Assembly: GCA_000091205.1 (NCBI GenBank) | Contig: AP006496.2 | From: Cyanidioschyzon merolae | Lineage: Eukaryota | DNA: 64,000 nucleotides | Strand: one strand, 5' to 3' | Shown here: positions 3,831 through 48,400 of the stretch, piece after piece | How the letters are laid out: each line of letters starts with the position of its first letter | Position numbering within the stretch: the first letter of the stretch is position 1 | The notes under the pieces: generated by a model | Databases searched by the model: none | What the model was told of the DNA's origin: nothing | The model's input: only the letters and a program-made list of their open reading frames with translations | Translations under genes and position numbers: made by a program

Positions 3831-5528
3831 ATGGCGCCTGCTGTCAAGCGAAGAGCCGCGGACGCCACCGCCGCTTCGCTACCCGCCTCGTCGCCGTCAG
3901 CTGAGCGTGTGCAGGCGGCAGACTTGGACGTCATGCATCAGGGCCGCACCAAAGAGGACACACCACAGCATGAGCACCCGGGCGCTGACCCGCAGAAACA
4001 ACAGGCATCACCACTCGAACGACTAGTGCTGCGCTCGACTGCGCACGTACGCGCGAACCCGGACGCCTGGCTCACGGGTGCGCTCGTGCTGCTTGGACTG
4101 TGGACGCGCCTCTACCGGATCCGCTGGCCACCCGAATGCGTCTTCGATGAGGTTCACTTTGCGTCGTTCGCACACCACTACCTCAACCGCACCTACTTCT
4201 TTGATATCCACCCGCCTCTGGCGAAGCTCACGCTGGCCGCAGTCGCGAAACTCGCTGGTGACGTCCCGAATCGCGACTGGTACGTCGACAAGGTCTACCC
4301 ACCAGACAGCCGGTACTATGCGATGCGCGCGTGCGCTGGCGTCTTCGGGGCGCTCCTGCCTCCGCTAGGCTTCCGCATCGCCCGCGGGATGGGTATGTCG
4401 CGGATCGCAGCCACTAGTGTGGGCGTGTTTCTGCTCTTCGACATGCTGAACCTGATCGAGGCGCGCCATATCCTCACGGACTCGCAGCTCATCTTCTACG
4501 CTGCGCTATGCATCGATGCGTTCGTGCGGCTGTGGCGCACGCCTCCAGCGAGCCGCGCTCGACGCTGGGCTGCTGTGCGCGCCGGCCTCGCGAGCGGTGC
4601 AGCGCTCTCAGTGAAGTGGACCACGCTCGTGGTGCCCGGCCTCTTCGGCCTCGAGTCGGTTGCCGGCGCTGCGCTCGCCGCCGAGCCGCTCGAGTGGAGC
4701 ACCTGCGCGATCGTCGCCGCAACAGCCCTGCTCTTGTACGTGGCGCTCTGGTACCCGCACTTTCGGATTCTGATCTATAATGGACCAGGCGGTGACTTTA
4801 TGAGCGCCGAGTTCCAGCGGACCCTCATTGGTCGCGACGGCTACGACCCGCAGGCCCGAAAGCCGCCTTTCCTCAAGCTCGTCTGGCAGCTCAACAAGGA
4901 GATGCTGCTGGCGAACGCGCGCATCCTCGATGAGCACCAGTGGCAAGCGCGCTGGCACACATGGCCATACGTAGGCCGTGGCCTCCTTTACTGGAATCGC
5001 TGGCAGGAGGGTACGTTGGATGCTGACGGGCGACCGCTGCGCCCGCATCACGCCATGCAGATCTATCTGATCGGGAATCCGCTGCTGTTCTGGATGTGCT
5101 TGGCAGCGGTGCTTGGTACAGTGGCGGCAATGCCGTTCTTGCTGCGCCTGATTCGCCAGCGGAAAAAGCGTGGAACGAGCACGGACGCATGGGAGCGCTA
5201 CCTGCGGCTGGCAACATTCCTTCTGCTTGGCTATGCGCTCGGCATTCTCCCGTACATGCCGATCCAGCGAAGTACGTTTATCTACCACTACCTGCCGTCG
5301 CTGTTGTTCGCGGAGCTGCTTTTTGCGCACGCGGTCCTCGATCTGCCGGCGCTACCGTCGGTGCTGCAGCTGCCGCTCGCCGGTATCGTCTGGATCGTTG
5401 TCTTCTGGTGCTTCTGGTACTTCCGCGCCTGGGTCTATGGACACATCGCGCTCACCGCCGACGACCATGAGGCCATGCGCTGGATCAAGTACACGTCCAG
5501 CGTAGGCGACAACAAGGGATGGCACTGA
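3831..5528 (+). CDS. Dolichyl-phosphate-mannose--protein O-mannosyltransferase (PMT, GT39 family), lacking the MIR loop
   Basis: 565-aa ORF with the PMT signature ECVFDEVHFASFAHHYLNRTYFFDIHPPLAKL (the DE motif of loop 1) and multiple TM segments. The loop-5-flanking motifs DFMSAEFQRTL and WHTWPYVGRGLLYW are directly adjacent with about 60 aa between them, so the roughly 190-aa MIR domain is missing. Codon usage is GC3-rich. Confidence 0.85.
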   Translation: MAPAVKRRAADATAASLPASSPSAERVQAADLDVMHQGRTKEDTPQHEHPGADPQKQQASPLERLVLRSTAHVRANPDAWLTGALVLLGLWTRLYRIRWPPECVFDEVHFASFAHHYLNRTYFFDIHPPLAKLTLAAVAKLAGDVPNRDWYVDKVYPPDSRYYAMRACAGVFGALLPPLGFRIARGMGMSRIAATSVGVFLLFDMLNLIEARHILTDSQLIFYAALCIDAFVRLWRTPPASRARRWAAVRAGLASGAALSVKWTTLVVPGLFGLESVAGAALAAEPLEWSTCAIVAATALLLYVALWYPHFRILIYNGPGGDFMSAEFQRTLIGRDGYDPQARKPPFLKLVWQLNKEMLLANARILDEHQWQARWHTWPYVGRGLLYWNRWQEGTLDADGRPLRPHHAMQIYLIGNPLLFWMCLAAVLGTVAAMPFLLRLIRQRKKRGTSTDAWERYLRLATFLLLGYALGILPYMPIQRSTFIYHYLPSLLFAELLFAHAVLDLPALPSVLQLPLAGIVWIVVFWCFWYFRAWVYGHIALTADDHEAMRWIKYTSSVGDNKGWH

Positions 5529-10927: not shown

Positions 10928-11005
10928 CCCGTGCCGATCCCGTGCCGATCCCGTGCCGATCCCGTGCCGATCCCGTGCCGATCCCGTGCCAGTCCAGTGC
11001 CGATT
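10928..11005. repeat. 12-bp tandem repeat (CCCGTGCCGATC) x5 plus degenerate units, followed by an (AGC)n tract at about 11050-11090
   Basis: Direct reading: cccgtgccgatc repeated five times, then ccgtgccagtccagtgccgatt. About 250 bp upstream of the FTR1 start. Confidence 0.85.
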
Positions 11006-15631: not shown

Positions 15632-16762
15632 ATGTCCTCGCAGAGCACGGCGCTTTCGAACGGTGCCAAGTCGGTAACCGGTGGACAGCCCGACGGGAAC
15701 TCGGACGCGCTGGTCGTCTACGGCGACCGTCTGCGCTTCGTGCCGCGGAATATCCTTGTGACTGGCGGTGCCGGCTTTATTGCCTCGCACGTTGTCGAAC
15801 GGCTCGTGAGTCGATATCCCCATTACCGCGTGACGGTACTGGACAAGCTCGACTACTGCTCGTCGCTGAGCAACCTCGCGCAGGTGGCAAACCGACCAAA
15901 CTTCAAGTTTATTCGCGGCGATATCCGCTCGCATGACCTGGTGCTCTACGTGCTCCAGGAGGAGTGCATCGATACAGTGCTCCACTTTGCGGCGTGCACG
16001 CACGTCGACAACTCGTTCACGTCCTCGATCCTGTTTACGGAGAACAACGTGCTGGGAACGCACGTCCTCCTGGAGTGCGCACGCCAGTACGGCAAAGTGC
16101 GGCGCTTCATTCACGTCAGCACCGATGAGGTGTACGGCGGCGAGAGCAACATGGAGACAGAGTCATCGATCCTGGCACCCACGAACCCGTACGCATGTAG
16201 CAAGGCCGCCGCCGAATTCATTTGCCGCGGCTACGTCAAGTCGTTCGGATTGCCGGTGATCATCACACGCGGCAACAACGTGTACGGGCCGCACCAGTTC
16301 CCCGACAAGCTCATTCCCAAGAGTATCTGTCTGCTGGCGCAACGCCGGCCCTGCTTTGTACACGGCTCTGGTGAGCATGCACGCAACTTTTTGTACGTCG
16401 AGGACGCGGCGAGCGCCTTTGACACCATCCTGCATTGTGGCGAGACCGATGAGGTCTACAATGTAGGCTCTGAGATCGAGAAACGCAACATTGACGTTGT
16501 GCACGACATTATCGATCTCTTCGGCCTGTCTGCCGAGGCGAACCGCCACATCGAGTTTGTCAAAGATCGCACCCTCAACGATATGCGCTACAGGATCGAC
16601 TCGTCGAAGCTGCATGCGCTTGGCTGGAGGCCGCAGGTGTCCTGGGAAGAGGGCCTGCGCCGAACCAAGACCTGGTACTGTGATCCGAATAACCTGAAGC
16701 GCTGGCCGAATTATCTCAGTGGCCTCGTACCGCATCCGAGTCTCACCGAGGAGAAGCACTAG
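15632..16762 (+). CDS. UDP-glucose 4,6-dehydratase (RHM N-terminal-domain type; first step of UDP-L-rhamnose synthesis)
   Basis: ILVTGGAGFIASHVVERL (GxxGxxG), YRVTVLDKLDYCSSLSNL, HFAACTHVDNSF, STDEVYG and YACSKAAAEFICRGY (YxxxK) are the dTDP/UDP-glucose 4,6-dehydratase hallmarks. Same strand as NRS/ER, 1.2 kb downstream. Confidence 0.9.
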   Translation: MSSQSTALSNGAKSVTGGQPDGNSDALVVYGDRLRFVPRNILVTGGAGFIASHVVERLVSRYPHYRVTVLDKLDYCSSLSNLAQVANRPNFKFIRGDIRSHDLVLYVLQEECIDTVLHFAACTHVDNSFTSSILFTENNVLGTHVLLECARQYGKVRRFIHVSTDEVYGGESNMETESSILAPTNPYACSKAAAEFICRGYVKSFGLPVIITRGNNVYGPHQFPDKLIPKSICLLAQRRPCFVHGSGEHARNFLYVEDAASAFDTILHCGETDEVYNVGSEIEKRNIDVVHDIIDLFGLSAEANRHIEFVKDRTLNDMRYRIDSSKLHALGWRPQVSWEEGLRRTKTWYCDPNNLKRWPNYLSGLVPHPSLTEEKH

Positions 16763-20823: not shown

Positions 20824-21612
20824 CTACAAACCGAAGTCATCTATTCCGGTGTCGGCCGTTTCAGCGTCTGTCTGATCCTCTTGCGCTTCGCTCTCCGCGG
20901 CATGTCGTCGTTTCCGACGACGCACCGCGAATACAAGAAGCGCACAGCAACTAGACAGTAATAGAGTTCCAAGCACCACTATGATAACGATCACCCAGAC
21001 AGGGAGCGGACTCGAGCTCGAAGTGACCAATCCGGCTATAGTTACTGTTCCATTCGGCGCTACACAGACTGGAGAGCCGTAAAACTTGGATAGTTCAGCG
21101 CTGAGTGTGCCATTTTTCAACGCTTCGCGAAGTTCCGATGCGATCTGCAAAGCCGTTGAACCATCGGCATCCCAGACGCTCGTCGTATTATAAAGTATCA
21201 GAGATTGCGCACTGCCAATGCAACTTACAAACTCGTCTGCGTCCAACCTGAAGTCCGACTCACGAATACTTGACTTAGTGATCTCACGCGTACTATTCAC
21301 AATAAAACTCAGTGGAGTAATACCGAAGAGTACCTCCATGGCATGGCGAAGCGCGTCAGCCAACGCAGACTCAGAGGCAACACCCGTGAAAAACGCCTCA
21401 TTCAGTATCAGATGTACAGGATTGCCGGTTGTAGTACTCGAAACAGACACACTAGAAGAAGCAGATGCACTCAAAGAACTGGAGAAAGAAACGGACGCGC
21501 TCACAGACGCACTTGCATATTGGCTAGATGTGACCGAGACCGACGCAGATGCTAATGCTGACGCGGAGGCAGTGATGCTGAGGCTGTGGCTGACGCTACT
21601 CTGCGATTGTTG
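20824..21612 (-). CDS. Ser-rich type-I membrane protein segment (mucin-like stalk, single TM, acidic cytoplasmic tail); open frame extends upstream to 21612 without an ATG
   Basis: SASVSVTSSQYASASVSASVSFSSSLSASASSSVSVSSTTTG ... NGT sites ... TM VWVIVIIVVLGTLLLSSCCALLVFAV followed by RRRKRRH. The ORF track starts it at a GTG. The frame stays open to 21612 and overlaps the end of the upstream ORF in another frame. Confidence 0.5.
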   Translation of the reverse strand, partial: QQSQSSVSHSLSITASASALASASVSVTSSQYASASVSASVSFSSSLSASASSSVSVSSTTTGNPVHLILNEAFFTGVASESALADALRHAMEVLFGITPLSFIVNSTREITKSSIRESDFRLDADEFVSCIGSAQSLILYNTTSVWDADGSTALQIASELREALKNGTLSAELSKFYGSPVCVAPNGTVTIAGLVTSSSSPLPVWVIVIIVVLGTLLLSSCCALLVFAVRRRKRRHAAESEAQEDQTDAETADTGIDDFGL

Positions 21613-22358
21613 CTAACAAGCCCGGCAGTTATATGTGGATCGCCTTTTTTGAGCCGTTTCAAGCCTAGAGTCTTGGTAGCTCCCGAAGCTTTCATTACCA
21701 GTCTCCCTCTTTCGGGATTGCATGGTTTCACTACCTGCCTTGCAGGCTGGCTTGAATAAGTACCTTCATGAGATCCCAGTTCGTCCGCGGCTCTTTCCGC
21801 AGGACTTTCACTCCGCTCGATTTCCGCGGCAGGCGATAACACGTTGAACCCCTGTCCATCGGGTAAAATACAATATTTCCCGTTTTCTACGTTAACGGGA
21901 ATGCTGTTGCCTTTCAGCGAACCGTGGACACAGTCCATTCTTTTCCAGTGCGTTGGAACGTTCGAGAAACGCAACACTTCCCCGTGTCCCGCTACTTTCT
22001 TCCCCGGTATTTGAGACCGTCGCTCGAGTTCGGAGGATGGGCTAACGCATACTCCTGAAATGCCGCAGCTGTCAGATTCCCCGTCGACGCTCACCAGTTC
22101 TCTGTCCGTCACACGGCAGCGAGCGCAAGTTTCCCCATGGCAAACGACACTTCGCCATCCCCGCGCCCAAGAACCCTTTATGCGTCTGAACGAAGAACAA
22201 TCATCCCATAGCTCATGGCGAGCAGTGGAACGTATTAAAGCCTCAGCTTCACCGTCCCTCACGGTTGTTGTTAAAAGCGTCTGCGAAAGTCTCGCAAGAA
22301 GGAACAGCACAAGCCCGAGAGCAAAAATATTCCATAATCGTTGCATATTCGACTGCAT
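21552..22358 (-). CDS. Hypothetical secreted/signal-anchored Cys-containing protein; possibly the N-terminal part of the same gene as 20824..21612, separated by a frameshift
   Basis: N-terminal signal/anchor MQSNMQRLWNIFALGLVLFLLARLSQT. The 3' end overlaps the open upstream frame of the Ser-rich ORF by about 60 nt in a different frame. Confidence 0.4.
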   Translation of the reverse strand: MQSNMQRLWNIFALGLVLFLLARLSQTLLTTTVRDGEAEALIRSTARHELWDDCSSFRRIKGSWARGWRSVVCHGETCARCRVTDRELVSVDGESDSCGISGVCVSPSSELERRSQIPGKKVAGHGEVLRFSNVPTHWKRMDCVHGSLKGNSIPVNVENGKYCILPDGQGFNVLSPAAEIERSESPAERAADELGSHEGTYSSQPARQVVKPCNPERGRLVMKASGATKTLGLKRLKKGDPHITAGLVSNNRRVASATASASLPPRQH

Positions 22359-24592
22359 GATTGGCCTATTAAGTGGTATATGAAATCACATAAGTGCGTT
22401 TCCTAGCTATAGAAGACAGCGAGTGACTTCTATTCTCCAGTAGCGTCCAAAGTGACGAGACAACCAAAAGCCGCTTTCGTCCACTGCACAAGCAGAAAGC
22501 GCTCCGCACTCCCAAACACAACACGCCAGGAAAACGCTGGATCTTGACCTGTCCCTCCAAAAAGAGAGCAGACTGGTCCGAATAGACGAGGTTCCCTCCG
22601 TGAAAACTCTAACGCCCTGTCTAAACTGGATTGAAGCAGGAAAACGCCAAGGTCTGGAGAAGGCGTCAGTGAATAAACCGTCGCCGTCGTAACTTGGTAT
22701 CCTTTCGATCGGTTGCATACCTGATTTACGCCACGTATTACGCATCGATGGTCGTCTGTTGATTTCGCGGGGCCGCTCGAGGGGACTGCTCGTGCGTCCC
22801 CGTTCGCGGGGTCTGGGTGCCCAGATCCCCGGGGCGGTACCCGCACCGGCGCGGGGACGCGTCCCCATCCGACGGGAACGGGCGTCGCGTATGCCCTACG
22901 TTTCGAATCGAATGGTGCAACGACGCGGAGGCGGTTCCATCCGCAGCCAATGAAACGCCGCCATGATCGCACGGCCGTGGTCTATGGAACGTTCTTCGTA
23001 ACCAAAAAAGAGAAATCGTCGTGCGGAAAAAAACAAAAAAAAAAACAACAAAACAGACTAGTCGCAAACTATTTATGAAAGAACAACTATCTTAAAGACC
23101 CACACACCACGCGCGCCCATGGGGTCTAGTTTTTCCGAAGAAGCTCTGAAAGTGGGTTAAACCGGGGTGCTTGGGCGACGACGAAGCAAGCCCACGACAC
23201 GGACCTTGACCGCAACGAACGGAGGGGCGGAGGCAGTGGCAGCAGATTATATTGACGAGAATTTTGAGTAGTTATCCGCTGCTCCCGAAACAACGCTGCA
23301 GGTTCGTGCACAAATCTTGGACCCATCCTCGAACTCGGGCTCAGGAGTACCTCCTACCATGGGTACCTGCCTAAACTTTGGAAACAGTCTCGGCGGATAC
23401 TTTGGAAGACGGCTGGCGGTATGTTCGCGGTCGAAGCTGGAGTAAGCGACTTGCCCGCCTATGTGTTTGGGCAGCGGATACGTAGCCACTGAAAGGGTGG
23501 TTTGCAGACTGTTCCCAGTGGTTGAGGGGAGGTTAAAGCGTCGGGTAATATAAGGGTCGCATTCGAATCGACCTTGACTAACGTACTTCTGATTCTACGC
23601 CAGCGCTGCGGCAAGCACTCAATGAACGACTGGAATGCGGGAGGCGCTGGTGGCATGTGCGCTCACACACCCCGTGGAGGCTGCGTCTAAATCGACGTTC
23701 CACGCGAAAGGTCCAGCGAATCGGATGCGCACACGGGCTCAGTGCGCTTTCCGCGCCTACCAACTGTTGGGTGTCAAGCACAAACCCGCATTGCCAACCG
23801 ACAACAACGCATTCCATGCATGGTCACGAAGGAGAGAGGCATCTCCTAGGATATATCCTAACAACCAAGTGTCTCCAGCGTGTCGTGCAGCGAAGGCAAG
23901 CCTCCATCCGCAGACTGTCCGAGCACAAAGAGACGACGAGACCCGATTCTACGGCGGGTGAACCACGCCTCGAGCCGACGCCCTCTGTGGTAATGCAACG
24001 CCGTTCTATCTCCGTGATGCATCTGCACCAATGGTAAGGACGCTACTGCGGACAATTAGGGCAGGCATCAGGCACAAGGTAGAACGAATGAAACGACCAG
24101 AATATACAAGAAGAGGTGCAGGCAATGTAACTTGGAAGTAGAGAGTTTCATGGATACCTCACCGCGCATTGGAAAAAACATACAAAAAAGAATGAAAAGG
24201 AAAAGCGTAAAATCGGAGAATGCTGGCACAAGTAAACGTATCGTCCATGAAAAAAAGAATCGCGCTCGGTGAGCGCTCCTCGGAGATCGGCCAGTCAACT
24301 GACAAGCTGCGCGTGGCGTTGTTGAAGGGAAACGCGATCCTGACCAGGAGCGTGCTGTTCTACCGGAAAAAAAGGTAGATTTCCGTTGATGTCATAACCA
24401 AGTACAGTTTTTCAATTCGTTTTTGTTTCAAACTTCAAACAAGTCTAGTCAAGTGTTTTTCGCAGTATATAACAGAAGGGTTCAAAGAGCGTTGTTTTTC
24501 AAAAAAAAACAAAAAAAGGAAAGCTATGAAAAAGCAAGTCCACGATCCCGGAGGCCCGGGGTCGCAGGCTGCCAGAAAAAAACAAAAAAACA

Positions 24593-25375
24593 GTGCCGAG
24601 TCCAGAAGAAAAGGAAGAGAGAAAGAAGAAGGACAGAAAGGGGGAGGTCCTACTTCGAAGGCGGCAAGAAAGACGGCTGTACGACGAGAAGGTGGTGAAA
24701 ACCTTCCTTCTTGGACATATCAAGGATTCCTACAGGGAAAAGTTGCGAGACGCTATCGAAAAACGTGTCGACTCGCACACCAAGAGTATTGTGAAGGCGT
24801 CGTCAGGACTGATGCATTTAGCGAGGGAGATGTATCGCGACGTGACGCAAATGGAAACGGTCGAGATTCCGGACGATTTTTTCGACAAGACCTTTCTTCG
24901 TCAGCTGATGCTTGGGACAGGTGAATCGCGGAGGGAAACTCAGCTAGGGCATGCCCTCCACGAAAACTTCGCGGAATTCCACTTCGAGGGTAATCGATAC
25001 AGGGGTGACTGGCGTATTTACAAATATAGGGCAATGAAGTACCTCACGAACCTGAAGAACTATTTGACAACGAACCTCGAACGTTTCGTGATACGCGCCG
25101 TGGTTGCACTCTACCCGGGCCTGTCTCGCAAAAGAATATGGGCCATCATCGATGGTATCACGAAAGATCGCAAGCATGAAGATGAGGTCGAATTTGTCGA
25201 CAAGAAGGCGTCAAAAGTGAGAACGAATGAAGCTTCTCTGATCCGTGCGGCTATTCAAGAGCACCGTGCAGTCTTAGGGCTGGTGACTCCAACAGACAAG
25301 ATATCAGAGTTGAAAAAAGATAAGGAAAGATACTATCGCCTCGTCCTGCGGTACCTCGTGTTTCTGGACCGATAG
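24593..25375 (+). pseudogene. Copy A, N-terminal segment of the Fanzor-like protein (lysine-rich NLS-like start, then a helical region); ends at a TAG where the copy at 47323..47763 has GAG
   Basis: Aligns along its length with 59161..60318(-) (the MKKQVDDPGGPGS...ERFMIRAVFALYPGLSRK region). Here LDR*LERKAEM versus [11 protein letters not shown] in copy 5. Confidence 0.65.
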
Positions 25376-26090
25376 CTCGAACGCAAGGCGGAGATGAAGC
25401 TGAGAGGCGAAAAAATGAAGAGTGGGAGAGACGGAAGGCTGTCCTAATGGGTAAGCGCTTCAACGGCGTTCCAGTGTGCAACCTCAAGTCACATTTTGTG
25501 AGTATCGACTCCAGAGTCCTTGACGCCGCATGAAAGAGATCAGTCCCGAGTTCGATGTTAGCAGGGAGGAGTTCTCCGGCGAAAACCGGGAGACCCACTG
25601 GAAGAATATCTTCGATTTCAAACGTCTGAGAGTGAGCAAGCAAACGGTATTCACTGGTTTGATCGAAACCGATGGAGTAGCCTTGTGTGTACACTATCGG
25701 CGGTTGAAGAAAGATCGGCCAGTTCCGCCCTCGGCTGCGCCCGTGACGAAGGATGGAGAAAAGGAGGAGTCGGATCCTGCGATGCAGGAGGTGGAGGATA
25801 ACGACTTTGTCGTTGACGTGGCGAAGGATGAAGATGAGAAGGAGGCGGATCCCACGACGCAGGAGGTGCAAGATAATGACCTTGTCGTCGACGCTGCGAG
25901 GCATGAAGATGAGAAGAAGGCGGATCCTGTGATGCAGGAGGTAGAGGATGACAACCTTGTCGTTGACGCGGCGGAGCATGAAGAAAACAAGAAGGCGGGT
26001 TCTGAGAAGCAGAAAGTGCAGGAAAACGACTTTGTCGTTGATGTGACGAAGCATGAAGTTGAGAAGGAGGCGGAACCTGCGACGTAGGAG

Positions 26091-26981
26091 GTGGAGGGTA
26101 ACGACTTTATCGTTGACGCGGCGAAGAATGAAGAAAAGAAGGCGGCGGGTCCTGTGACGCAGAAAGTGCATGAGAATGACTTTGTCGTTGGCGCAGACCC
26201 TGGAAACACAAATATCATAACCATCGCTGCACCGAAGCGTGCGGAACTTGGTATTGACGGCAACTTGCGTCAGAAAGACATGCGTCTTTTGGGGTTCTCG
26301 AGAGCGAGATACTATCGAGAATCGGGAATGATGAATGCGAGGAAGAAAATTGAGACTTGGAATTCAGGAATGAAGGATCACCTGGAAGCCTTGAGCGAGG
26401 TCATGAGCCGGGGAGCGGACTTTCGGGCTTTTCGGGAATTCATGGAAGTTCGTGTTACCCATTGGGATGCGCTGTGGGAGGAGTATACCAAGCTCCGGTG
26501 GGCTCGTTTGCGTAAGAATCTATACGGTGGGAAACAGCGGGCGTTTGCCAACTTTTTCAGTCAGTTGAGTGCCTTGAAGGAGGATGAGAGTCAGAGGCTG
26601 GTAGTGGCATACGGAGCAGGGCGCTGGGCGCCCAAGAAAGGCACTGCGCCAGCTCCAACGACAAGATCATACAAGGAGTGCGCATGGCGTTTCGTCACGA
26701 TACCTGTAGATGAGTTTCGAACGTCCTATACACACCATGAACTGGGGTGTACACTGCAGAGAGTGGAGATTGAAAAGTGTCAGCGGAGTCCTGAGGAAAT
26801 AGCAAAGTACGGACCGCTGACGGAAGAGCAAATGGGAAGGAAGGCGAAAGTGCGAGGGCTACATGCACTAGGGAGTACAACTCACAACGGCAAGAAACGG
26901 ATGGAATTCTTGAACCGAGACTTTAACGTCGCTATGAATATACGGAGATGTGCGGTGCTGGAGACGAGACCTCCAGCGTAG
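26091..26981 (+). pseudogene. Copy A, RuvC nuclease segment of the Fanzor/TnpB-like protein
   Basis: [15 protein letters not shown] (RuvC-I Asp), RAFANFFSQLSALKEDESQRLVVAYGAGRW (RuvC-II region), FRTSYTHHELGCTLQRVEIEKCQRS (ZnF-like), KKRMEFLNRDFNVAMNIRRC (RuvC-III, RD.N.A.NI). It is preceded by a TAG that aligns with CAG (Gln) in the repeat consensus. Confidence 0.7.
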
Positions 26982-27166
26982 ACATGAGAGAACTTTGCTG
27001 GACAGCCTCTGAAAGTTGAACTATATGAGAACAAGTTGTAAGCAGTAGTGGGTGGCCGGTCCAAAAAGTCTGGGAGGCGTCTACACGTCAGTTAAAGATT
27101 TTTTGTCGAGGGCGCGGTTGCCGCCACTACTTTTTCTGCCGACCGCAGCGCAATTAAAACTACTCT

Positions 27167-29259: not shown

Positions 29260-29830
29260 TGTAACTAAAGTAGCACACGAGCGTGCGGCAGACATTTTTC
29301 GGACGACAAAACGTTTAGATTGACCATGCATCCCAGAATTCGGGACGGATAATGGCTTTCGGGAAAGCGTCCATCGTGAAGCACCTACCTTCAGGTTCCA
29401 TTACCCATACTTCCTCTCGGATATACTTGTCGTTTCGTATGTTCTATCGTGCGCCAAGTGCCTGCAGTGAGCACCCGCCATAGCGCTTATATACCGCTGA
29501 AGCAGATGCTGCACGGAGACAGAACGGCTTTGCCATACCACTGAGGGCGTCGATTCGATGCTTGGTTCATCCGACACGGGATCGGAGTACTTAATCATTA
29601 TGAAAGCCTGCGAAAGCGCGAACCGATCTACGAGGAGTTCACTGCGACCAGGGTGACGCCCAGACGCAGCATACGCGCTCCTTGTCCCAGAATGAATTGC
29701 GTTGCAGACGAGCTGCGCAGGTCTCGCCATACTACCTGCCACTGGAGAAAGCATGAAGCACTAGCCGCGCAGACTCGTCCGGCTCACTGGATCTTCCGCC
29801 TAGAAGGTAAACTTTCGAAGATACGGAAAA
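29260..29830 (-). repeat. Solo copy of the transposon 5' module (variant X'), in inverse orientation to the adjacent truncated copy 3
   Basis: The minus strand reads taccttctaggcggaagatccagtgagccgg...atcgacgccctcagtggtatggcaaagccgttctgtctccgtgcagc...gatggacgctttcccgaaagcc. This matches the 5' module of copy 6 (61135 downward) and the module at 47964-48400. Confidence 0.5.
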
Positions 29831-29984
29831 TTTTCCCCATTTCAGTGCTTACTATCAAGGTAGAAAGAAACTGTTATCGAGTTGCCTGTCAGAGGTTAGT
29901 TTCTGTTCTTTTCTCTCTGGGAGAATGCTCGCTGCTCACGGGCGGACACAATTAGAGGGCAAGCCTGTGTGAGGAAGTTGGTAA

Positions 29985-30876
29985 CGAGGGCAACTTATGT
30001 CAGAAAGACATGCGTGTTTTGAAGTTCTCGAGAGCGAGATATTACCGAGAATCGGAAATAATGAATGCGAGGAAACAAAGTGAGGTGTGCAACGCAGGAA
30101 TGAGGGAGCATCTGAAAGCGATCCACCAAGTGACAAGCCGTGGGGCGGACTTTAAAGCTTTCCGGGAGTTCATGCAAGTTCGCGTGGCTCATGACGAGAC
30201 GCTGTGAAAAGAGTATACCAAGCCCCGGTGGGCTGGTCTGCGTATGAGCTTGTATTGTGGGAAGCGGCGTGCATTCGCGAATTTTTTCAATGAGTTGAGC
30301 GCCCTAAAGGAGGATGAAAGTCAGAGGCTTGTAGTAGCGCACGGAGCAGGGCGCTGGAAGACTCAAAAAGGGACTACGCCAGCTCCAACGACACGAACGT
30401 TCAAGGAGTGCGCACGGCGTTTTGTTACGATACCGATAGATGAGTTTCGAACATCGTATACAAACCATGAACTGGGGTGCACACTTCAAAGGGTCGAGAT
30501 GGAAAAGCGTCGGAGGAGCCCTGATGATATACGAAAGTACGGAGCGCTGACGGAAGAGCAAATGGAAAGGAGAGCGAAAGTTCGAGGACTAGGTGCACTA
30601 GTAAGTACAACTACCAACGGGAAGAAACGGATGGAGTTCGTGAACCGAGATTTTGACGCAGCAATCTATATAAGGAGATATGCGGTGATGGAAAGAAGAC
30701 CTCCAGAGTTGAGAAGAGAGAACTTTGTGGGGCAACCTCTCAACGTGGAATTATATGAGAAAAAGTTGAAACCAGTAGTAGGTGGCCAGTCCAAAAAAAT
30801 GCTGGGAGACGTCTGAACGTCAGTTGGAGACTTTTTGTCTAGGGCGCGTTTGCCACTACTGGACACTGCCGGCGAC
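29985..30876 (+). mobile_element. 5'-truncated Fanzor/TnpB-like transposon fragment (copy 3): RuvC C-terminal half plus conserved 3' tail
   Basis: ORF 30010..30207 ([25 protein letters not shown]) and ORF 30244..30816 (KRRAFANFFNELSALKEDESQRLVVAHGAGRW...FRTSYTNHELGCTLQRVEMEKRRRS...KKRMEFVNRDFDAAIYIRRY). Tail ...gtctgaacgtcagttggagactttttgtctagggcgcgtttgccactactggacactgccggcg. Confidence 0.7.
30244..30816 (+). pseudogene. Copy 3, RuvC-II/ZnF/RuvC-III segment of the Fanzor/TnpB-like protein
   Basis: See copy 3. RuvC-III NRDFDAAIYIRR. Confidence 0.65.
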
Positions 30877-31243
30877 AACGTTTTTCTTTTGAAAGGCGTT
30901 TGTTGTCCCAGCCGTCGCTCCGAGTGACCTCCAGCAGCACCAGCTCGGAAACCTCGCTCTATTTTCGACGCTACTCTATCAAAATATTCTTATCACAAAA
31001 TCGATCGTCTCCGAGGAAGTTGGGAAACGCAAAACGCTTCGCTAGAGTCGGGCTATCGTGGGGCGATAGTACCAGATGCGGCTTTTCCTACTGATTCTGA
31101 ATCGGGCGCTTCAAGGTGCTTCGGCACTGCTTCCGTTGCGTCATTGGGGACACGACACCAAACGCCCGGGTCAGTTCTTGCTCTTCGCGCTTCACTCGTG
31201 CGCTGTTCAGTCCACAGATGACGCACCATCAACGACCTCTTCA

Positions 31244-33160
31244 TTACTGCTCACTTTTTACAGCACTGAGCATGCTATCCAGAACTCTGCTGATGGTGTG
31301 CCCCGACTGGACCAACTCCGAAGGCTCGTGACTGGCGCTGACATGCAGCACTAGTGCGGGTGGCAGTCTCAGGTGCTCGGTCAAGACCTGGCCGGGCACA
31401 GATGCCCAGATTCCGTGGCGGATTAAGCGCTCTCGAGCTAGTACCCAGAAGCGTTCCGTCACGAGTTCTTCGAAAGCCCCGGCCTGGTACATGCCTGGGA
31501 TGACCATCTCGTGCGCTGTGGCAGCTGCAGCCACCGCAGAGGCATGGTTGATTTGCCGAATAGCTGCATCGGTTACCATGGAGCCGAGCTCCTCCGTTGC
31601 TTCCGCGGAGATGGACGAGCCCGAATCCGATAGGCTGTCGGCGTCACCGTCCTCGTTCATCTCAGTTGAACGAAGCTGATCAGCACGATTCCGAAGTTGT
31701 TTTTCAGTTGCCTGCACCAGCTGGAGCACTCGGGCCAGAAGCGACTGCACTCCTCGGCTACTGAGCCGCAGATAGATCAGCGGCGATTCGTCAACGTTGC
31801 CTTCGACAAGCACATTCGCGGGTAGATGCTCTCGCAGTGTACGGCGCAACAAAGCGGCGTTTGAGCGCACGCGCTCAGACCGATTCGGCTCTTCGCACAA
31901 CAGCTGGATACCGACACTTACTGCCTCCGCTAGGAACGGCGGCTGAGATGCACTGAAACAATACCCCGCACTGCTCAAACGTTGATGATCTACCACAGAA
32001 AGTTCGGCTCCGACACAGAATCCACCAACAGAGGCGAGCGAAAACGCCACATCGACGACAACGATGTCGACATCACGACCGAGCTGGAGACCGAAATGTT
32101 CGCAAGCACCTCGCCCGGTTGCACCAAGAACACCCATAGAGTGGCTTTCGTCCACAAATAGACGCAAGTTGCTGTGCCGACGCCTCACCGCAGCAAACTC
32201 GTCCAATCGAGCAACCATCCCTGTATTTTGATAAATGCCTTCAACGATGATGAACTGACGATGCAGAAGATTTGATCTGCTTTTCGGCTGTGTTGACTCA
32301 ATGGCCACAATTTTGCGTTCCAGATCAGCGGGATCATTGTGGTGGAACCAAACAATCATTGCCCGGCTTAACTGCATGCCGTTCTGGAGAGCATAGTGTA
32401 AACATTCATCAGCGAAGATAATGTCGCCCTTTTTCGCAAAGGCATTAACAATACTAGTGGAGGTGGCTGACCCGAAACTGTAAAGAATGGCCTCATGTGT
32501 ACCCATGAACTTTGCAATTTCGTACTCGCAGCGTAAATGGACATCCATCGTTCCATAAAAACCGCGAGGCCCGCAAGCACCGCAGCCATACTTGAGTAGT
32601 ATGCGTCTGCATGCCTCTTCGATTCGTGGTTCCCTCTGGAAGCCCAAATAATTTGCAGACGCAAAGTTCAGACATCGTTTCAGGCCGTGGTCACCGATCT
32701 GGACGACACAGTACCCACCGGGCTCGTAGGCATGAACGGTGGGCGCCTCTAGCAGGTCAGATGTCTCGGTGTCTGCGAGTTCACCGCTGCCAAGGGCAAT
32801 GGAAACACTCGTACGAACCAGACTTAGAGTCGCTTCGGTCGACGCGCCGTTACGTGGACTCAAAATTGCGGACTCAGTACTCGGAGGAACCAGCGCCTCG
32901 GGCGTCCATTCGTCGCAGAGCGCATCGATTTCCTCTTCCGTGAGATCATCCGCGCGCGATTTCAGAGCGAACCGTGCAGCCGCGCGACTCGGCGTGCCAC
33001 GTTCGCGTCGCTGACCCGGTGCATACGCTTTTTGCAGAAAAAAATAGGCAAGAAGCAATGCAAGGCTAATTTCCAAAGCAACGTGAAAGAGAAGAAAGGA
33101 TGTAACCTTTCCCCTGAGCTCGGAGAGAACCGATGAGAGCCATGTGGGAAGCTCCATCAT
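31244..33160 (-). CDS. LCB1: Serine palmitoyltransferase subunit 1 (LCB1/SPTLC1-type alpha-oxoamine synthase lacking the PLP lysine)
   Basis: Class-II aminotransferase/AOS fold: GSATSTSIVNAFAKKGDIIFADECLHYALQNG, FIIVEGIYQNTGMVARLDEFAAVRRRHSNLRLFVDESHSMGVLGATGRGACEHFG. The PLP-binding position reads DVAFSLASVGGFCVG (no Lys), which is typical of LCB1 rather than LCB2. N-terminal TM segment. Confidence 0.85.
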   Translation of the reverse strand: MMELPTWLSSVLSELRGKVTSFLLFHVALEISLALLLAYFFLQKAYAPGQRRERGTPSRAAARFALKSRADDLTEEEIDALCDEWTPEALVPPSTESAILSPRNGASTEATLSLVRTSVSIALGSGELADTETSDLLEAPTVHAYEPGGYCVVQIGDHGLKRCLNFASANYLGFQREPRIEEACRRILLKYGCGACGPRGFYGTMDVHLRCEYEIAKFMGTHEAILYSFGSATSTSIVNAFAKKGDIIFADECLHYALQNGMQLSRAMIVWFHHNDPADLERKIVAIESTQPKSRSNLLHRQFIIVEGIYQNTGMVARLDEFAAVRRRHSNLRLFVDESHSMGVLGATGRGACEHFGLQLGRDVDIVVVDVAFSLASVGGFCVGAELSVVDHQRLSSAGYCFSASQPPFLAEAVSVGIQLLCEEPNRSERVRSNAALLRRTLREHLPANVLVEGNVDESPLIYLRLSSRGVQSLLARVLQLVQATEKQLRNRADQLRSTEMNEDGDADSLSDSGSSISAEATEELGSMVTDAAIRQINHASAVAAAATAHEMVIPGMYQAGAFEELVTERFWVLARERLIRHGIWASVPGQVLTEHLRLPPALVLHVSASHEPSELVQSGHTISRVLDSMLSAVKSEQ

Positions 33161-34642: not shown

Positions 34643-37330
34643 GAACGCCGGCAGTGTAGAGGATTGGCGAGTGACCTGCCCCAGACGAAACGTCTCCAAC
34701 TGACGTGCCGACGCCTCCGCGTCGATTTGGACCGGCCACCCACTACTGCTTTCAACTTCTTCTCATATAGTTCCACTTTGAGCGGTTATCCAACAAAGCC
34801 CTCTCGTGTCAACTCCGGGCGTCTTCGTTCCACCAGCGCATATCGCCTTAGATAGATAGCGGCGTCAAAGTCTCGGTTCACGAATTCCATCCGTTTCTTG
34901 CCATTGATTGCATACGCCAGTGCAAGCAATCCACGAACTTTTGCCCTCCTTTCCATTTGCTCCTCCGTCAGCGCTCGGTACTTTTTTATATTCTCAGGGC
35001 TCCGCTGACACTTTTCCATCTCCACTCTCTGAAGTGCACACCCCGGTTCGTGGTGTGTATACATTGTTCGGAACTCGTCTACAGGCATCGTAACAATACG
35101 CCGTGCGCACTCCTTGCACGCTCTCGTTGTTGGAGCTGGCGTAGTTCCTTTTTTGGACGCCCAGCGCCCTGCCGCATACGCTCCTACGAGCCTCTGACTC
35201 GCGTCCTATTTGAGGGCGCTCAACTCATTGAAAACGTTCGCGAATGCCCGCTGCCTCCCACAGTATAGATTCATTCGCAAACAATCACACCGGGGCTTGG
35301 TATACTCCTCCCACAGCGCATCCCAATGGGCAACATGAACTTCCATGAATTTCCGAAAAGCTCGAAAGTCCGCTCCCCGGCTCATGACCTCGCTCAAGGC
35401 TTCCAGGTGATCCTTCATTCCTGAATTCCAAGTCTCGATTTTCTTCCTTTTATCATTGTACCGGATTCGCGGTAGTATCTCGCTCGCGAGAATCTCAAGA
35501 GACGCATGTCTTTCTTACGTAAGTTACCGTCAGTACCGTCTTCCGCACGTCTGGGTGCAGCAATGGTGATGATATTCGTATTGCCAGGGTCCGCGCCAAC
35601 GACAAAGTCGTTATCCTGCACTTTCTGCGTGGCAGGATCCGCCTCCTTCTTTTCTTTCTCCTTCGTCATGTCAACGACAAGGTCGTTATCCTCCACCTCC
35701 TGCGTCGCAAGACCCGCCTCCTTCTTTTCTTCATGCTTCGTCGTGCCAACGACAAGGTCGTCATCCTGCATTTTCTGTGTCAAAGGATCCGCCTCCTTCT
35801 CATCTTCATCCTTCGCCACGTCAACGACAAAGTCGTTATCCTCCACCTCCTGCATCGCAGGATCCGACTCCTCCTTTTCTCCATCCTTCGTCACGGGCGC
35901 AGCCGAGGGCGGAACTGGCCGATCTTTCTTCAACCGCCGATAGTGTACACACAAGGCTACTCCATCGGTTTCGATCAACCCAGTGAATACCGTTTGCTTG
36001 CTCACTCTCAGACGTTTGAAATCGAAGATATTCTTCCAGTGGGTCTCCCGGTTTTCGCCGGAGAACTCCTCCCTGCTAACATCGAACTCGGGACTGATCT
36101 CTTTCATGCGGCGTCAAGGACTCTGGAGTCGATACTCACAAAATGTGACTTGAGGTTGCACACTGGAACGCCGTTGAAGCGCTTCCCCATTAGGACAGCC
36201 TTCCGTCTCTCCCACTCTTCATTTTTTCGCCTCTCAGCTTCATCTCCGCCTTGCGTTCGAGTTCTAGATCCAAAAACAAGAAATAGCGCAGAATGTGGCG
36301 ATACCATCTTTCCTTATCTTTTTTCAACTCTGATATCTTTTCTATTGGGTTCGCCAACCCCAGAACCGCACGGCGCTCTTGAATAGCCGCGCGGATTATA
36401 GAATCTTCATTCGTGCTCTCTTTTGACACCTTCTTGTCAACGAATTCGACCTCATTTTCACGCTTGCAATCGTTCGTGATGCCACTGATAATCACCCATT
36501 TTCCTTTGCGAGACAGGCCCGTGTAGAGCGCAAACACGGCGCGTATCATAAAACGTTCCAGGGTCATTGTAGAATGGTTCTTCAGATTCTTGAGGTATTT
36601 CATCGCTCCGTGTGTGTAAATATCCCGGTCACCCTTGTATCGAGTACCGTTGAAGCTCTAGAAGGGGTATGTTTTTGTGGAGGGCATGCACTAGCTCATT
36701 TTCCCGCCGCGCTTCCCCTGTACAAAGCGTCAGGCGTCGAATAAAGGTCATGTGGAAAAACCAGTCCGGAACCTCGCCTATTTTGATGTCCGTAACGTCA
36801 TCGTACATCTCCCTCGCCGCATGCATCAGTTCTAAAAAAGCCTTACGAACAGTCCTGGATTACAATTCGACACTGTTTCTGATGGCCTCTTGCAACTTTT
36901 GCCTGCACGGATCCTTGATGTGGCGTAGAAAACAGGCTTTCATCATCCTCTCATCTTACTGGTGTCTCACTTCTAGCTCCTTCTCGCCATGCCATGCCGT
37001 ACTCGTGCATGGAACAAGGCCCCCAGCGATTGTAGACGCTCCGAAAGCAGCATCGCGTGTTTCTAAGCATGTCAAGTTATGGCCTGGATCGCGTTTCCCA
37101 GCAACGGCGAGATGCGCGTTTTGTCCGGTTGTTGCCAGATCTCCAGGCGCCAAGAACAAGACACTTCGACGGACAGCGCATCGCAACGACGATTCCGCGC
37201 TCGATGCATCAACGGCGACGAGAACAGCAGCTGCGGCGGCGGCGGAGGCGGCGCGACGGCGACACAGCGCGATCGGCTCAGATGGTTAATACGAGCTGCA
37301 GGATCAATTCTGACAAGTTGAAGGGAACAC
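34643..37330 (-). mobile_element. Fanzor/TnpB-like transposon copy 4 (internal deletion of the N-terminal NLS region, 1-nt frameshift; 3' half near-identical to copy 5)
   Basis: Minus-strand ORFs 36629..36826, 36190..36603 (N-terminal segment), 35415..36107 (acidic repeats plus Ruv[19 protein letters not shown]), 35206..35418, 34786..35088 (ZnF/RuvC-III: FRTMYTHHEPGCALQRVEMEKCQRS...KKRMEFVNRDFDAAIYLRRY). Tail ends at about 34643 (revcomp ...cgccaatcctctacactgccggcgttcaa). Confidence 0.7.
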
Positions 37331-37383: not shown

Positions 37384-38304
37384 ATGCAATATATATTGAA
37401 AGCACTCCTGTGCATACTCACGGTTATTGCCGTCGTAAGCAGTTGCAGCAACGGATTTCTGATCCCTCGGGCGGCCAGAGACGCAGCGGTGCGGGAGGAC
37501 GGCGCACCACGGCAAGCTGCTTTCGCTGGATATCGCTGGCTCCCCGAAGAGGAGCACAGTCTTCAGCACCTGGTGGAACGTGGACAGGTCTATGTCACGC
37601 AGTCGAAACCCCAAGCCACAAAGACTGTCGAGCCTTTGGTAACACCGAAGGCCACCGCGCTAGCAATAGCTACAAAAAAGGCAACGAAGAAACCAGAAAA
37701 AGTGCAGAAGGTCAAGAAAACAGTCGTCGTGACAGCTCCCCCGAAAGTCATTGTCAAGCCGACCGAGGTCGTCGTGACAGTTACAGCGGTTGCTACGGTC
37801 ACGAAGACACCGACGCCGACTCCCGTGCATGTCACAGTGACGGCTCTCGCAACTGAGGCTGTTACGGTGACCGCGTCCGTAGCAGTCGCAGCAGTATCAG
37901 TGACGCAAACACCCATACCGCAAAAAGTTATCTGCCGTTTTTGGATGAAAAATTGTAATATTCAGGAAATCAATCGGCAGATATGCTTCACGGGCGAGAA
38001 CATTGACCAGTTTACGTGTGAACAGATTGGTTGCTGCTGGCAACCTATCAAGTCGCAGAAGGCGCCCACGTGCTATCGAGCGATCTGGGCTCCGGTCTGC
38101 AATCTCCAATGTAACTTTCAGGCCTATCTTACCGGCGGCCAGGGCGTCTCTGAGACGCCGCTCGTTAAAGCAACGAGCGCGAAGACGGACTCCACGAGCG
38201 ATGCGCCGTCTGGCAGCTCGAATACAACCCAGACCAGCCAGTTGAGCAGTGGGAACGTGTTTTCTGGACTGCAGAATGCACTCAGCGGTCTTCCATCGTC
38301 ATAG
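37384..38304 (+). CDS. Secreted Thr/Val-rich (mucin-like) protein with a trefoil (P-domain)-like cysteine module
   Basis: Signal peptide MQYILKALLCILTVIAVVSSCSNG. TV/TP-rich low-complexity stalk (TVTAVATVTKTPTPTPVHVTVTALATEAVTVTASVA). Then CNIQEINRQICFTGENIDQFTCEQIGCCWQPIKSQKAPTCYR, which matches the trefoil spacing C-x(9-10)-C-G/F-x(8-9)-C-x4-CC-[FW]-x(8-9)-[W/T]C[FY]. Confidence 0.55.
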   Translation: MQYILKALLCILTVIAVVSSCSNGFLIPRAARDAAVREDGAPRQAAFAGYRWLPEEEHSLQHLVERGQVYVTQSKPQATKTVEPLVTPKATALAIATKKATKKPEKVQKVKKTVVVTAPPKVIVKPTEVVVTVTAVATVTKTPTPTPVHVTVTALATEAVTVTASVAVAAVSVTQTPIPQKVICRFWMKNCNIQEINRQICFTGENIDQFTCEQIGCCWQPIKSQKAPTCYRAIWAPVCNLQCNFQAYLTGGQGVSETPLVKATSAKTDSTSDAPSGSSNTTQTSQLSSGNVFSGLQNALSGLPSS

Positions 38305-45668: not shown

Positions 45669-45932
45669 TTTATCCGCGGTGCACTGCGTTCGGAACACAC
45701 ACGAGCTAGAGAAACGTGATCCGCCAAGCGTGCAAAGTTAATCGACGCCACGAGCCTGCGCAGCGACGTTGCAAATAAGGCTTTTCGACTAAAAACAAAA
45801 ACAGGAAACGTATTATACAAGATATAGAAAAACAGAAGCCGACGGAGGGTGCACCGTCGACGTACCGAGCTCAAGATTCCAGCGCACGATCGCATCTCGC
45901 GAATCTTGTCACCACCGCCTATCTAAAGACGC

Positions 45933-47830
45933 GTCGCCGGCGGTGCGCAGTACTGGTGGCGAACGCGCCTTAGACAAATCGTCTCCAACTGACGTGCCGA
46001 CGCCTCCGCGTCTATTTGGACCGGCCACCCACTACTGCTTTCAACTTCTTCTCATATAGTTCCACTTTGAGCGGTTATCCAACAAAGCCCTCTCGTGTCA
46101 ACTCCGGGCGTCTTCGTTCCACCAGCGCATATCGCCTTAGATAGATAGCGGCGTCAAAGTCTCGGTTCACGAATTCCATCCGTCTCTTGCCATTGATTGT
46201 ATACGCCAGTGCAAGCAATCCACGAACTTTTGCCCTCCTTTCCATTTGCTCCTCCGTCAGCGCTCGGTACTTTTTTATATTCTCAGGGCTCCGCTGACAC
46301 TTTTCCATCTCCACTCTCTGAAGTGCACACCCCGGTTCGTGGTGTGTATACATTGTTCGGAACTCGTCTACAGGCATCGTAACAATACGCCGTGCGCACT
46401 CCTTGCACGCTCTCTTTGTTGGAGATGGCGTCATTCCTTTTTTGGACGCCAAGCGCCCTGCCGCATACGCTCCTACGAGCCTCTGACTCGCGTCCTATTT
46501 GAGGGCGCTCAACTCATTGAAAACGTTCGCGAATGCCCGCTGCCTCCCACAGTATAGATTCATTCGCAAACAATCACACCGGGGCTTGGTATACTCCTCC
46601 CACAGCGCATCCCAATGGGCAACATGAACTTCCATGAATTTCCGAAAAGCTCGAAAGTCCGCTCCCCGGCTCATGACCTCGCTCAAGGCTTCCAGGTGAT
46701 CTTTCATTCCTGAATTCCAAGTCTCGATTTTCTTCCTTTTATCATTATACCGGATTCGCGGTAGTATCTCGCTCTCGAGAATCTCAAGAGACGCATGTCT
46801 TTCTTACGTAAGTTACCGTCAGTACCGTCTTCCGCACGTCTGGGTGCAGCAATGGTGATGATCTTCGTATTGCCAGGGTCCGCGCCAACGACAAAGTCGT
46901 TATCCTGCACTTTCTGCGTGGCAGGATCCGCCTCCTTCTTTTCTTCCTCCTTCGTCATGTCAACGACAAGGTCGTTATCCTCCACCTCCTGCGTCGCAAG
47001 ACCCGCCTCCTTCTCATCTTCCTGCTTCGACGCGCCATCGACAAGGTCGTTATGCTGCACTTTCTGTTCTGTGTGGCAGGATCCTCCTCAATGTTTTCTT
47101 CATCCTTCGTCACGGACGCAGCCGAGGGATGGACTGGCCGATCTTTCTTCAACCGCCGATAGTGTATACACAAGGCTACTCCATCGGTTTCGATCAACCC
47201 AGTGAATACCGTTTGCTTGCTCACTCTCAGACGTTTGGAATCGAAGATATTCTTCCAGTGGGTCTCCAGGTTTTCGCCGGTGAAGTCCTCCCTGCTAACA
47301 TCGAACTCGGGACTGATCTCTTTCATGCGGCGTCAAGGACTCTGGAGTCGATACTCACAAAATGTGACTTGAGGTTGCACATTGGAACGCCGTTGAAGCG
47401 CTTCCCCATTAGGAAATCCTTCCGTCTCTCCCACTCTTCATTTGCCTCTTCACTCAGCTTCATTTCTGCCTTGCGTTCGAGCTCTCGGTCCAGAAACGCG
47501 AGGTACCGCAGGACGAGGCGATAGTATCTTTCCTTATCTTCTTTCAACTCTGATATCTTGTCTGTCGAATCCGCCAACCCCAGAACCGCAGGGCGCTCTT
47601 GAATAGCCGCGCGGATTACAGAATCTTCATTCGTGCTCTCGTTTGACGACCTCTTGTCAAAGAATTCAATCTTATCTTCATGCTTACGATGGTTCGTGAT
47701 GCCGTTGATAATCGCCCATAGCCACTTGCAAGAGATACCCTGGGTACAGTGCAAACACGGCACGTATCATAAAACGCTCCAGGTTCACGATCATATGATT
47801 CTTCAGATTCGTGATGTGCGTACTCGGCCT
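45933..47830 (-). mobile_element. Fanzor/TnpB-like transposon copy 5 (5'-truncated within the N-terminal protein; multiple frameshifts; 3' half about 98-99% identical to copy 4)
   Basis: Minus-strand ORFs 47323..47763, 46955..47326, 46704..47060 ([17 protein letters not shown]), 46495..46707, 46075..46452 (FRTMYTHHEPGCALQRVEMEKCQRS...NRDFDAAIYLRRY). Tail ends at about 45933 (revcomp ...ccaccagtactgcgcaccgccggcgac). Confidence 0.7.
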
Positions 47831-47963
47831 GTCACAATTTACTCTGGCATTAAGAGCGGGCGGCCTGCGTCATGGCGTCGCCCTGGTCCTAACAGACTCC
47901 TAGCACGTCGCTTCACGCTGTTGCAGGCAGCAGATCTGGCTGCCCAGTTGTCAGGCTCCCAGA

Positions 47964-48400
47964 ATGATTACGTATTCCGACTCCGTATCAGGTGAAACCT
48001 TCCTCGATACGACGCCCTCAGTGGTATCGCAAAGCCGTTCTGTGTCCGTTCAGCATTGGCATCAGCGCTACAGGCGCTTTCGCTGGAGCTCAAATCAGAC
48101 ACTCGGGGCACAACAGGACGTACAAAACTACCGGTGTATCCAAAATGATGCATTAGTAATGGGCTTTGATGGTAGATGCGTCATGATGGACGCTTTTTCG
48201 ACTACCAATATCCATCTCGCCGGCTGAGATCCCCGGTCAATGTAAACGAATTTCGCCATCGAAAGAGAATCGATCGCAGCGCCCTGCGGATGCCGCCCCC
48301 CTCCCCTGCGAAATAACATCCAGACAAACATTACGTCTTTTCCCTTCAAAGGGAACACTGGTCCAAGATGCCGACCCTATGCTGATCGCAGAGCAAGCGT
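47964..48400 (+). repeat. Transposon 5' module (variant X') adjacent to copy 5 but in the opposite orientation; terminal palindrome ttcccttcaaagggaa
   Basis: The plus strand reads cgatacgacgccctcagtggtatcgcaaagccgttctgtgtccgttcagc...gatggacgctttttcgactacc...cttttcccttcaaagggaacactgg. It is homologous to 29260-29830(-) and to the 5' modules of copies A and 6. It abuts the start of the nucleotide-sugar transporter gene. Confidence 0.5.

Follow-up and report, generated by a model that had tools for sequence, protein, structure and literature searches.

What is a variable array of acidic tandem repeats doing immediately ahead of the first catalytic motif of a TnpB-family nuclease? This question was raised by a 64,000-nucleotide stretch of contig AP006496.2 (the window), which lies near one end of Cyanidioschyzon merolae 10D chromosome 14. 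A preliminary description, made from the sequence alone, had noticed such repeats inside several copies of a Fanzor-like open reading frame (ORF). A blastn self-search of the window identified six related elements, here called copies A, 0, 3, 4, 5 and 6 (Table 1). We favour the reading, to which we assign a probability of about 0.7, that the array is a near-neutral coding minisatellite, a 75-bp variable number tandem repeat (VNTR), situated in a permissive disordered linker of the CMe-1A Fanzor1 and remodelled by unequal recombination and gene conversion.

The array is longest in copy A, where positions 25740-26189 (+) hold six in-phase units of 75 nt (25 codons) with no indels. Each unit ends in ...ND(F/L)VV, and directly 3' of the last one is GGC GCA GAC CCT GGA, encoding the RuvC-I motif GADPG. 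This bore out the placement of tandem repeats immediately N-terminal to RuvC-I, and the unit motif first proposed agrees with the unit consensus computed here. Tandem Repeats Finder reported a period of 75 with 6.0 copies, 76% matches and 0% indels over 25747-26194, together with an additional higher-order row of period 150. Self-identity of copy A at a lag of 75 was 0.757, compared with 0.33-0.46 at lags 60-90. The array encodes 48 D/E and 17 K/R among its 150 codons, a net charge of -31. Units of 75 bp with nucleotide-level homology fall within the definition of a minisatellite (head-to-tail units of 10-100 bp).

Repeat number differs between paralogous copies while the phase is kept, as had been claimed. 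Within the window, we counted six units in copy A, four in copy 4, three each in copies 5 and 6, and one in copy 0, with a 75-nt period throughout; the first unit of copy 5 is frameshifted, being broken by an indel and stops. Tandem Repeats Finder placed the minus-strand arrays at 35597-35893 (4.0 copies), 46883-47060 (2.4 copies) and 58878-59100 (3.0 copies). A metagenome scan contributed 71 related loci, and removal of orthologous duplicates left a comparison set of 123 complete units in 42 arrays from the window and the metagenomes combined. The anchors flanking these arrays are separated by 78 + 75n nt, corresponding to 1 to 6 units. The 25-codon phase is always kept because the changes are whole-unit steps; phase conservation is therefore a trivial outcome of whole-unit gain and loss, and is no evidence of selection.

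Assemblers readily collapse or expand tandem repeats, GAx and AAx codons abound here, and the array might therefore have been an assembly artefact or a reflection of low-complexity composition instead of a true tandem duplication. The preliminary description had itself named units that do not align at the nucleotide level, or an assembly error, as what would undo its claim. The six units of copy A did align, with a mean pairwise nucleotide identity of 0.771 (range 72-85%) versus 0.386 +/- 0.013 in a control in which codons were shuffled within each unit (z about 30). As this identity greatly exceeds that of the control, we conclude that the units are true tandem duplications and not a product of composition. 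An assembly error is also unlikely, since independent metagenome assemblies hold the same arrays: the six-unit array of copy A and the TAG within it recur in the two orthologous metagenome loci L021 and L022, with six units in each, and the three-unit array of copy 5 recurs in locus L071. With arrays in more than 40 distinct loci, the artefact explanation is hardly credible.

The element that carries the array is a known one. The six window copies align with the 3169-bp CMe-1A consensus, which we took from the supplement of Bao & Jurka 2013, at 72-89% identity. CMe-1 is the sole Fanzor1 family listed for C. merolae, with about 150 copies that are each ~80% identical to a ~3-kb consensus; it has no terminal inverted repeats, its target site duplications are undetermined, and some of its genomic copies are stated to be intact (Bao & Jurka 2013, Mob DNA 4:12, PMC3627910). 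The window copies share their architecture and the D...E...RD motif with the published family. They differ in the array: the CMe-1A consensus and its 734-aa protein contain exactly one 25-codon unit followed by GADPG, whereas the genomic copies analysed here contain 1-6 units. Neither the word 'tandem' nor the word 'acidic' appears in Bao & Jurka 2013 (PMC3627910), and the structural papers on Fanzors give only an N-terminal disordered region and the FRI insertion of PpFz1. The suspicion that such an array was absent from described Fanzors therefore held for the papers examined: the host element is the already published Fanzor1 family CMe-1A, and the array itself appears to be undescribed. We know of no report of a coding minisatellite from a TnpB or Fanzor nuclease. 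A coding minisatellite in another transposon ORF is the length-polymorphism region of mouse L1 ORF1, which consists of in-frame repeats of a few dozen bases that differ in number between copies or subfamilies; the protein and the element class are different there.

Several lines of evidence placed the carrier protein in Fanzor1. The motifs GADPG, DEFRTS and NRDxNAAxN are readable in copies A and 6. A HMMER scan of 1.84 billion representative proteins returned 2525 relatives at E <= 1e-3, mostly of 600-700 aa, and D484, E656 and R724-D725 (numbering of protein P0001) are invariant in a 60-sequence family alignment. A profile of these 60 sequences matched PpFz1 (9cf0, 2.2e-22), SpuFz1 (8gkh, 2.7e-14) and GtFz1 (9cer, 1.7e-8) among PDB sequences, with no other matches; a narrow 13-sequence profile had found nothing relevant in the PDB, and success came only after widening with distant homologues. 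Pfam gave no significant family for the copy 6 protein, P0001, P0005 or P0025, and its Cas12f1-like_TNB family was matched by 14 of the 60 relatives. An AlphaFold2 model of P0001 built from the 60-sequence alignment reached a mean predicted local distance difference test (pLDDT) score of 81.3 and a predicted template modelling (TM) score of 0.79; a first model, from a shallow alignment, was unusable (pLDDT 36). The seven best Foldseek matches of the second model in the PDB were all Fanzor1 structures (E 7e-17 to 6e-14), among which SpuFz1 gave target-normalised TM-scores of 0.71-0.73 with E from 7e-17. Cas12f and other Cas12 proteins ranked below, at E >= 0.02 only. This modelling confirmed the CMe-1 protein as a Fanzor1 member with a predicted WED-REC-RuvC-TNB fold. 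The first assignment of the ORF as Fanzor-like was thus right as to the family, a TnpB-family Fanzor by both profile and fold, with the one correction that the ORF is intact in no window copy.

By inspection, no C4 zinc ribbon was present between RuvC-II and RuvC-III of CMe-1, and there were no CxxC pairs. A CxxC...CxxC zinc ribbon is included in the Fanzor family motif by Bao & Jurka 2013 (PMC3627910). The interval between EFRTS and NRD in CMe-1 has only two Cys and two His (copy A 26700-26930; consensus protein ~640-700). We treated the missing ribbon as lineage-specific decay of a typical, not a defining, feature; it is not disqualifying because the original describers place CMe-1 in Fanzor1 and both the fold and the profile searches agree.

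We then located the array within the fold. In the AlphaFold2 model of P0001, where the array spans about residues 381-480, residues 384-470 have pLDDT values of 30-37 and no secondary structure, and are flanked by confident WED strands (351-358 and 362-370) and by RuvC strand 1 (479-485). The array segment is thus predicted to be disordered. HMMER alignment to SpuFz1 (8gkh_P; chain numbering minus 394) set FTGxIETDGVxxCVHxxRxK of the CMe-1 protein against FEGSITTDGASVSVYLKHPEADK; the next residue after this stretch is Y345, and the catalytic Asp is D383. Y345 is a WED-loop residue that contacts and stacks on the base pair proximal to the target-adjacent motif and starts DNA unwinding (Saito 2023, PMC10432273). 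From the alignment to Y345 and D383, the array lies between the wedge-loop position and RuvC strand 1, beginning ~10 residues after the position aligned with Y345.

This site is variable in length across the wider family. In 98 non-CMe homologues, the WED His and the catalytic Asp were separated by a median distance of 30 aa (5-95% range 23-53, maximum 89), and the WED-RuvC stretch of these relatives is often charged. In CMe-1 the same distance increases from 42 aa in single-unit proteins to 167 aa where six units are present. Clear tandem repeats were confined to CMe-1-like proteins, making the array lineage-specific within the sample of 175 proteins scanned. The WED loop and WED-RuvC linker of SpuFz1 (PDB 8GKH, PMC10432273) occupy the homologous fold position, from the last WED strands (TDGxxVxV) to RuvC strand 1. 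However, the SpuFz1 stretch is ~38 aa, non-repetitive and holds Y345, whereas that of CMe-1 is 42-167 aa, acidic, repetitive and predicted to be disordered. Like the CMe-1 array, the FRI of PpFz1 (2024, PMC11423790) is a lineage-specific ~100-aa Fanzor1 insertion tolerated by the core fold; it differs in lying inside RuvC, in being folded into helices and sheets and non-repetitive, and in binding cyclophilin, while the CMe-1 array precedes RuvC strand 1. The N-terminal regions of Fanzors that bear nuclear localization signals (Jiang 2023, PMC10530073; Saito 2023, PMC10432273) are also disordered low-complexity additions to the TnpB core, but are basic and non-repetitive, in contrast to the internal, acidic and tandemly repeated array of CMe-1.

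The junctions between units reveal what was duplicated. Across the 42 non-redundant arrays, the internal junction consensus is GTCGTT/GACGCGGCGAAG. Its first 7 nt are the sequence 3' of the last unit (GGCGCGG/ACCCT), and from the 8th nt it is the start of unit 1 (CCCGTGA/CGAAG). In copy A the array homology correspondingly extends 7 nt (GGCGCRG) into the RuvC-I motif. From these junction matches, the duplicated 75 nt began within the codon that precedes the Lys of TK(D/H)E and ended with the first base of the codon for the catalytic Asp. Every internal unit thus repeats the opening of the RuvC-I strand, NDFVV-(G/D)A, without the Asp. The idea that the RuvC-I strand founded the repeat was therefore partly right: the strand start was duplicated, but the rest of the unit is linker, and the catalytic Asp was not included.

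These observations suggest a sequence of events. A tandem duplication of linker DNA and the first half of RuvC strand 1 (NDFVV-GA), ending at the catalytic Asp codon, would have given rise to the array. Units would then have been gained, lost and shuffled in whole-unit steps, at times in two-unit steps of 150 bp, probably by out-of-register ectopic recombination and gene conversion between paralogues together with replication slippage. The product would be an acidic disordered loop at a site of family-wide length variation, and because the site varies in length across the wider family, the loop would be tolerated rather than required.

Evidence of exchange between paralogues was found both within the window and between strains. 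Copies A and 4 are ~100% identical over ~25390-25830, a tract that ends in unit 2, and only 70-88% identical in the flanks. Between copies 4 and 5, identity is 86% upstream and 96.7% from a point inside the array (~35820) as far as the 3' end (34683), with frameshifts in common. Because copy 4 is like copy A on its 5' side and like copy 5 on its 3' side, it is a mosaic with a crossover inside the array. Segmental duplication of host DNA was considered for the frameshifts of copies 4 and 5 and rejected, as self-alignment similarity is found only within the elements; gene conversion fits better. Over 7 kb, copy A matches its orthologue L022 at 99% identity, and almost all of their differences fall in two patches, 25462-25659 and 25864-25917, the second in units 2-3. 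At most differing sites in these patches the window sequence matches copies 4 and 5, which indicates gene conversion since the strains split.

Relationships among the units bear on when the arrays expanded. They may have expanded only after each copy died, as a minisatellite in junk DNA that was never part of a working Fanzor1. This would account for every window copy and essentially every metagenome copy being a pseudogene, for the single unit of the published consensus, and for the neutral substitution pattern in the array. However, had the arrays expanded independently after the death of each copy, a unit should be most closely related to others in its own array, and clear recent intra-array duplication was seen in only about five arrays (L014, L006, L023, L042 and L067). 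Most units have their nearest relative in another array (5-13% divergence), often at the matching position, whereas same-array units differ by 15-25%. Specific variant units and their order are also common to copy A, L001, L012 and L034. Gene conversion could mimic part of this shared-unit signal. As the divergence within arrays is as large as that between copies, the duplications would date to the family radiation or earlier. Expansion solely after the death of each copy is therefore possible but rather unlikely. A neighbour-joining tree of the flanks was star-like, with scattered unit numbers (sister copies have 5/6/1, 4/3, 4/2 and 5/3 units), and marked no clade of copies derived from a single expansion.

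We next considered gene integrity. Each of the six copies in the window is a pseudogene. The frame of copy A is interrupted by one frameshift just 3' of the KKQK codons near its 5' end and another near 25375, and by the TAG in unit 5. Copy 6, the best preserved in the window, has a reading frame of 784 codons (60318-57964) with two stops: a TGA at 59161-59163 and, within the array, a TAG at 58912-58914. The two in-array stops replace Gln codons. An alternative code in which TAG is read as Gln was rejected, since copy 6 also has a TGA, the frameshifts differ and host genes translate normally. The only metagenome locus with a long open frame was L001, which has four units and 819 codons and matches consensus residues 11-699 uninterrupted. 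It could not be accepted as an intact ORF, as the consensus ATG is out of frame and a stop lies 35 codons before the consensus end.

To compare constraint in the array and its flanks, we computed Nei-Gojobori ratios of nonsynonymous to synonymous substitution rates (dN/dS) over a common set of copies. The ratio was 0.25 for 71 RuvC codons 3' of the array and 0.52 for 45 WED codons 5' of it; it was 0.94 for last units, 0.69 for first units and 0.89 for nearest-neighbour unit pairs. Diversity at the three codon positions was 0.266/0.196/0.231 in units and 0.134/0.120/0.268 in the RuvC segment, so that the array is without the third-position excess of the RuvC segment. Stop density (3.1 per 1000 codons in arrays versus 5.7 in the whole ORF) was uninformative. 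On these substitution patterns, the amino-acid sequence of the array is essentially unconstrained. Several unit positions are nonetheless highly conserved, for example Q16, V18 and V25.

The acidic array could instead be a selected functional module, acting as an autoinhibitory mimic of DNA or RNA or as a spacer beside the wedge loop, with activity tuned by unit number. The conserved positions within units, the start of the array so close to the Y345-aligned position, and the strong net negative charge kept in all arrays (-31 in copy A) are in keeping with such a role, and the flank dN/dS of 0.25 suggests that the family diverged largely under selection. Against it stand the dN/dS of 0.9 in the array and the missing third-position excess, and unit number is scattered over the tree without a preferred value. 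A single unit, or no unit at all, is present in the consensus and the more divergent relatives; the conserved positions can be accounted for by the units having arisen recently from a common source; and an intact multi-unit ORF was not found in the window or the metagenome loci. We consider a selected module unlikely. Its most specific form, in which the repeat is a copy-number-tunable autoinhibitor that competes with DNA or omega-RNA for the basic channel of the nuclease, would mean that expansion and contraction of the array set the activity of each Fanzor1 lineage in its host; this is very improbable. In all, there is no positive support for a functional role of the acidic loop beside the wedge, and we infer that it would be functionally neutral in any active protein.

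Several observations weigh against a near-neutral minisatellite. No demonstrably intact multi-unit gene was found among the window copies and metagenome loci, and because of this, tolerance of the array in an active nuclease can only be inferred. All arrays are strongly acidic, and bulk charge, length or disorder may be under selection, with which a near-neutral dN/dS is compatible. Synonymous divergence (dS) reaches only 0.24 in last units, compared with 0.50 in the flank, which may reflect conversion or shared ancestry. Across 8 kb, loci L014 and L017 are colinear and 99% identical, with five units in the former and three in the latter; they differ (L014 4100-4474 versus L017 4100-4327) by a 147-bp block of two near-identical units, which could be a genuine VNTR allele difference or could stem from three near-identical units having collapsed in a short-read assembly.

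The published CMe-1 consensus hides an unstable 25-codon repeat, through which the WED-to-RuvC linker can grow from ~40 to ~170 residues. If any multi-unit protein is active, the array would mark a natural permissive insertion site beside the DNA-unwinding wedge, useful for engineering fusions. The window also provides a small, clear-cut case in which ectopic gene conversion has reshaped paralogous copies of a transposon, here in a subtelomeric part of a very compact genome. The array leaves the understanding of how Fanzors work unchanged.

Table 1. Coordinates of the CMe-1 copies in the window and of their array features.
Feature	Position	Strand	Remarks
Copy A element	24261-27131	+	CMe-1A consensus positions 648-3131, 85-89% identity
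Copy A Fanzor1 ORF remnant	24526-26981	+	At least two frameshifts plus TAG
Copy A last WED strands and linker start	25602-25736	+	tblastn anchor; aligns with SpuFz1 FEGSITTDGASVSVYLKHPEADK-Y345
Copy A unit 1	25740-25814	+	
Copy A unit 2	25815-25889	+	
Copy A unit 3	25890-25964	+	
Copy A unit 4	25965-26039	+	
Copy A unit 5	26040-26114	+	
In-frame TAG in copy A unit 5	26085-26087	+	CAG (Gln16 of unit) in other units
Copy A unit 6	26115-26189	+	
Copy A RuvC-I motif G-A-D-P-G	26190-26204	+	Catalytic Asp codon 26196-26198
Copy 4 array, four units	35598-35897	-	Element 34646-37141
Copy 5 array, three units	46887-47119	-	Element 45925-48261, internal deletion
Copy 6 array, three units	58885-59109	-	Element 57929-60590
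Copy 0, single diverged unit	2276-2350	+	Element 216-3302, 72% identity to consensus
Copy 3, deletion derivative	29302-30898 (29302-29911 joined to 29969-30898)	+	Array and most of ORF absent

Other features of the copies were also noted. Copy 0 is the most diverged, and its GADPG (2351-2365) has decayed to GLYSW with loss of the catalytic Asp. In copy 3, consensus positions 2-636 run directly into 2239-3169; Bao & Jurka 2013 (PMC3627910) equated the 5' 636 bp of CMe-1A with TE-N2_CMe. Just upstream of consensus position ~640, an inverted piece of consensus ~85-270, from the TE-N2_CMe-like 5' region, is present in copies A and 6 alike (23957-24141 and 60697-60889), which suggests a common rearranged 5' end, or a subfamily.

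Five host ORFs in the window are exact matches of C. merolae 10D proteins (BAM81152, BAM81156, BAM81157, BAM81160 and BAM81161), with CMN009C and CMN016C among them (e.g. 3831-5528, 15632-16762, 21552-22358, 31244-33160 and 37384-38304). The sequence of a mannosyltransferase in the window is found, identical, under a second accession on a different contig, and a dTDP-glucose 4,6-dehydratase has paralogues of at least 90% identity on other contigs; these duplicates fit subtelomeric gene-family duplication. Two further repeats lie elsewhere in the window: a perfect 114-bp tandem duplication at 52017-52244 (2.0 copies at 100% identity), which has no relation to the Fanzor elements, and an 11-bp unit (CCCGTGCCGAT) repeated seven times with 92% identity at 10928-11004.

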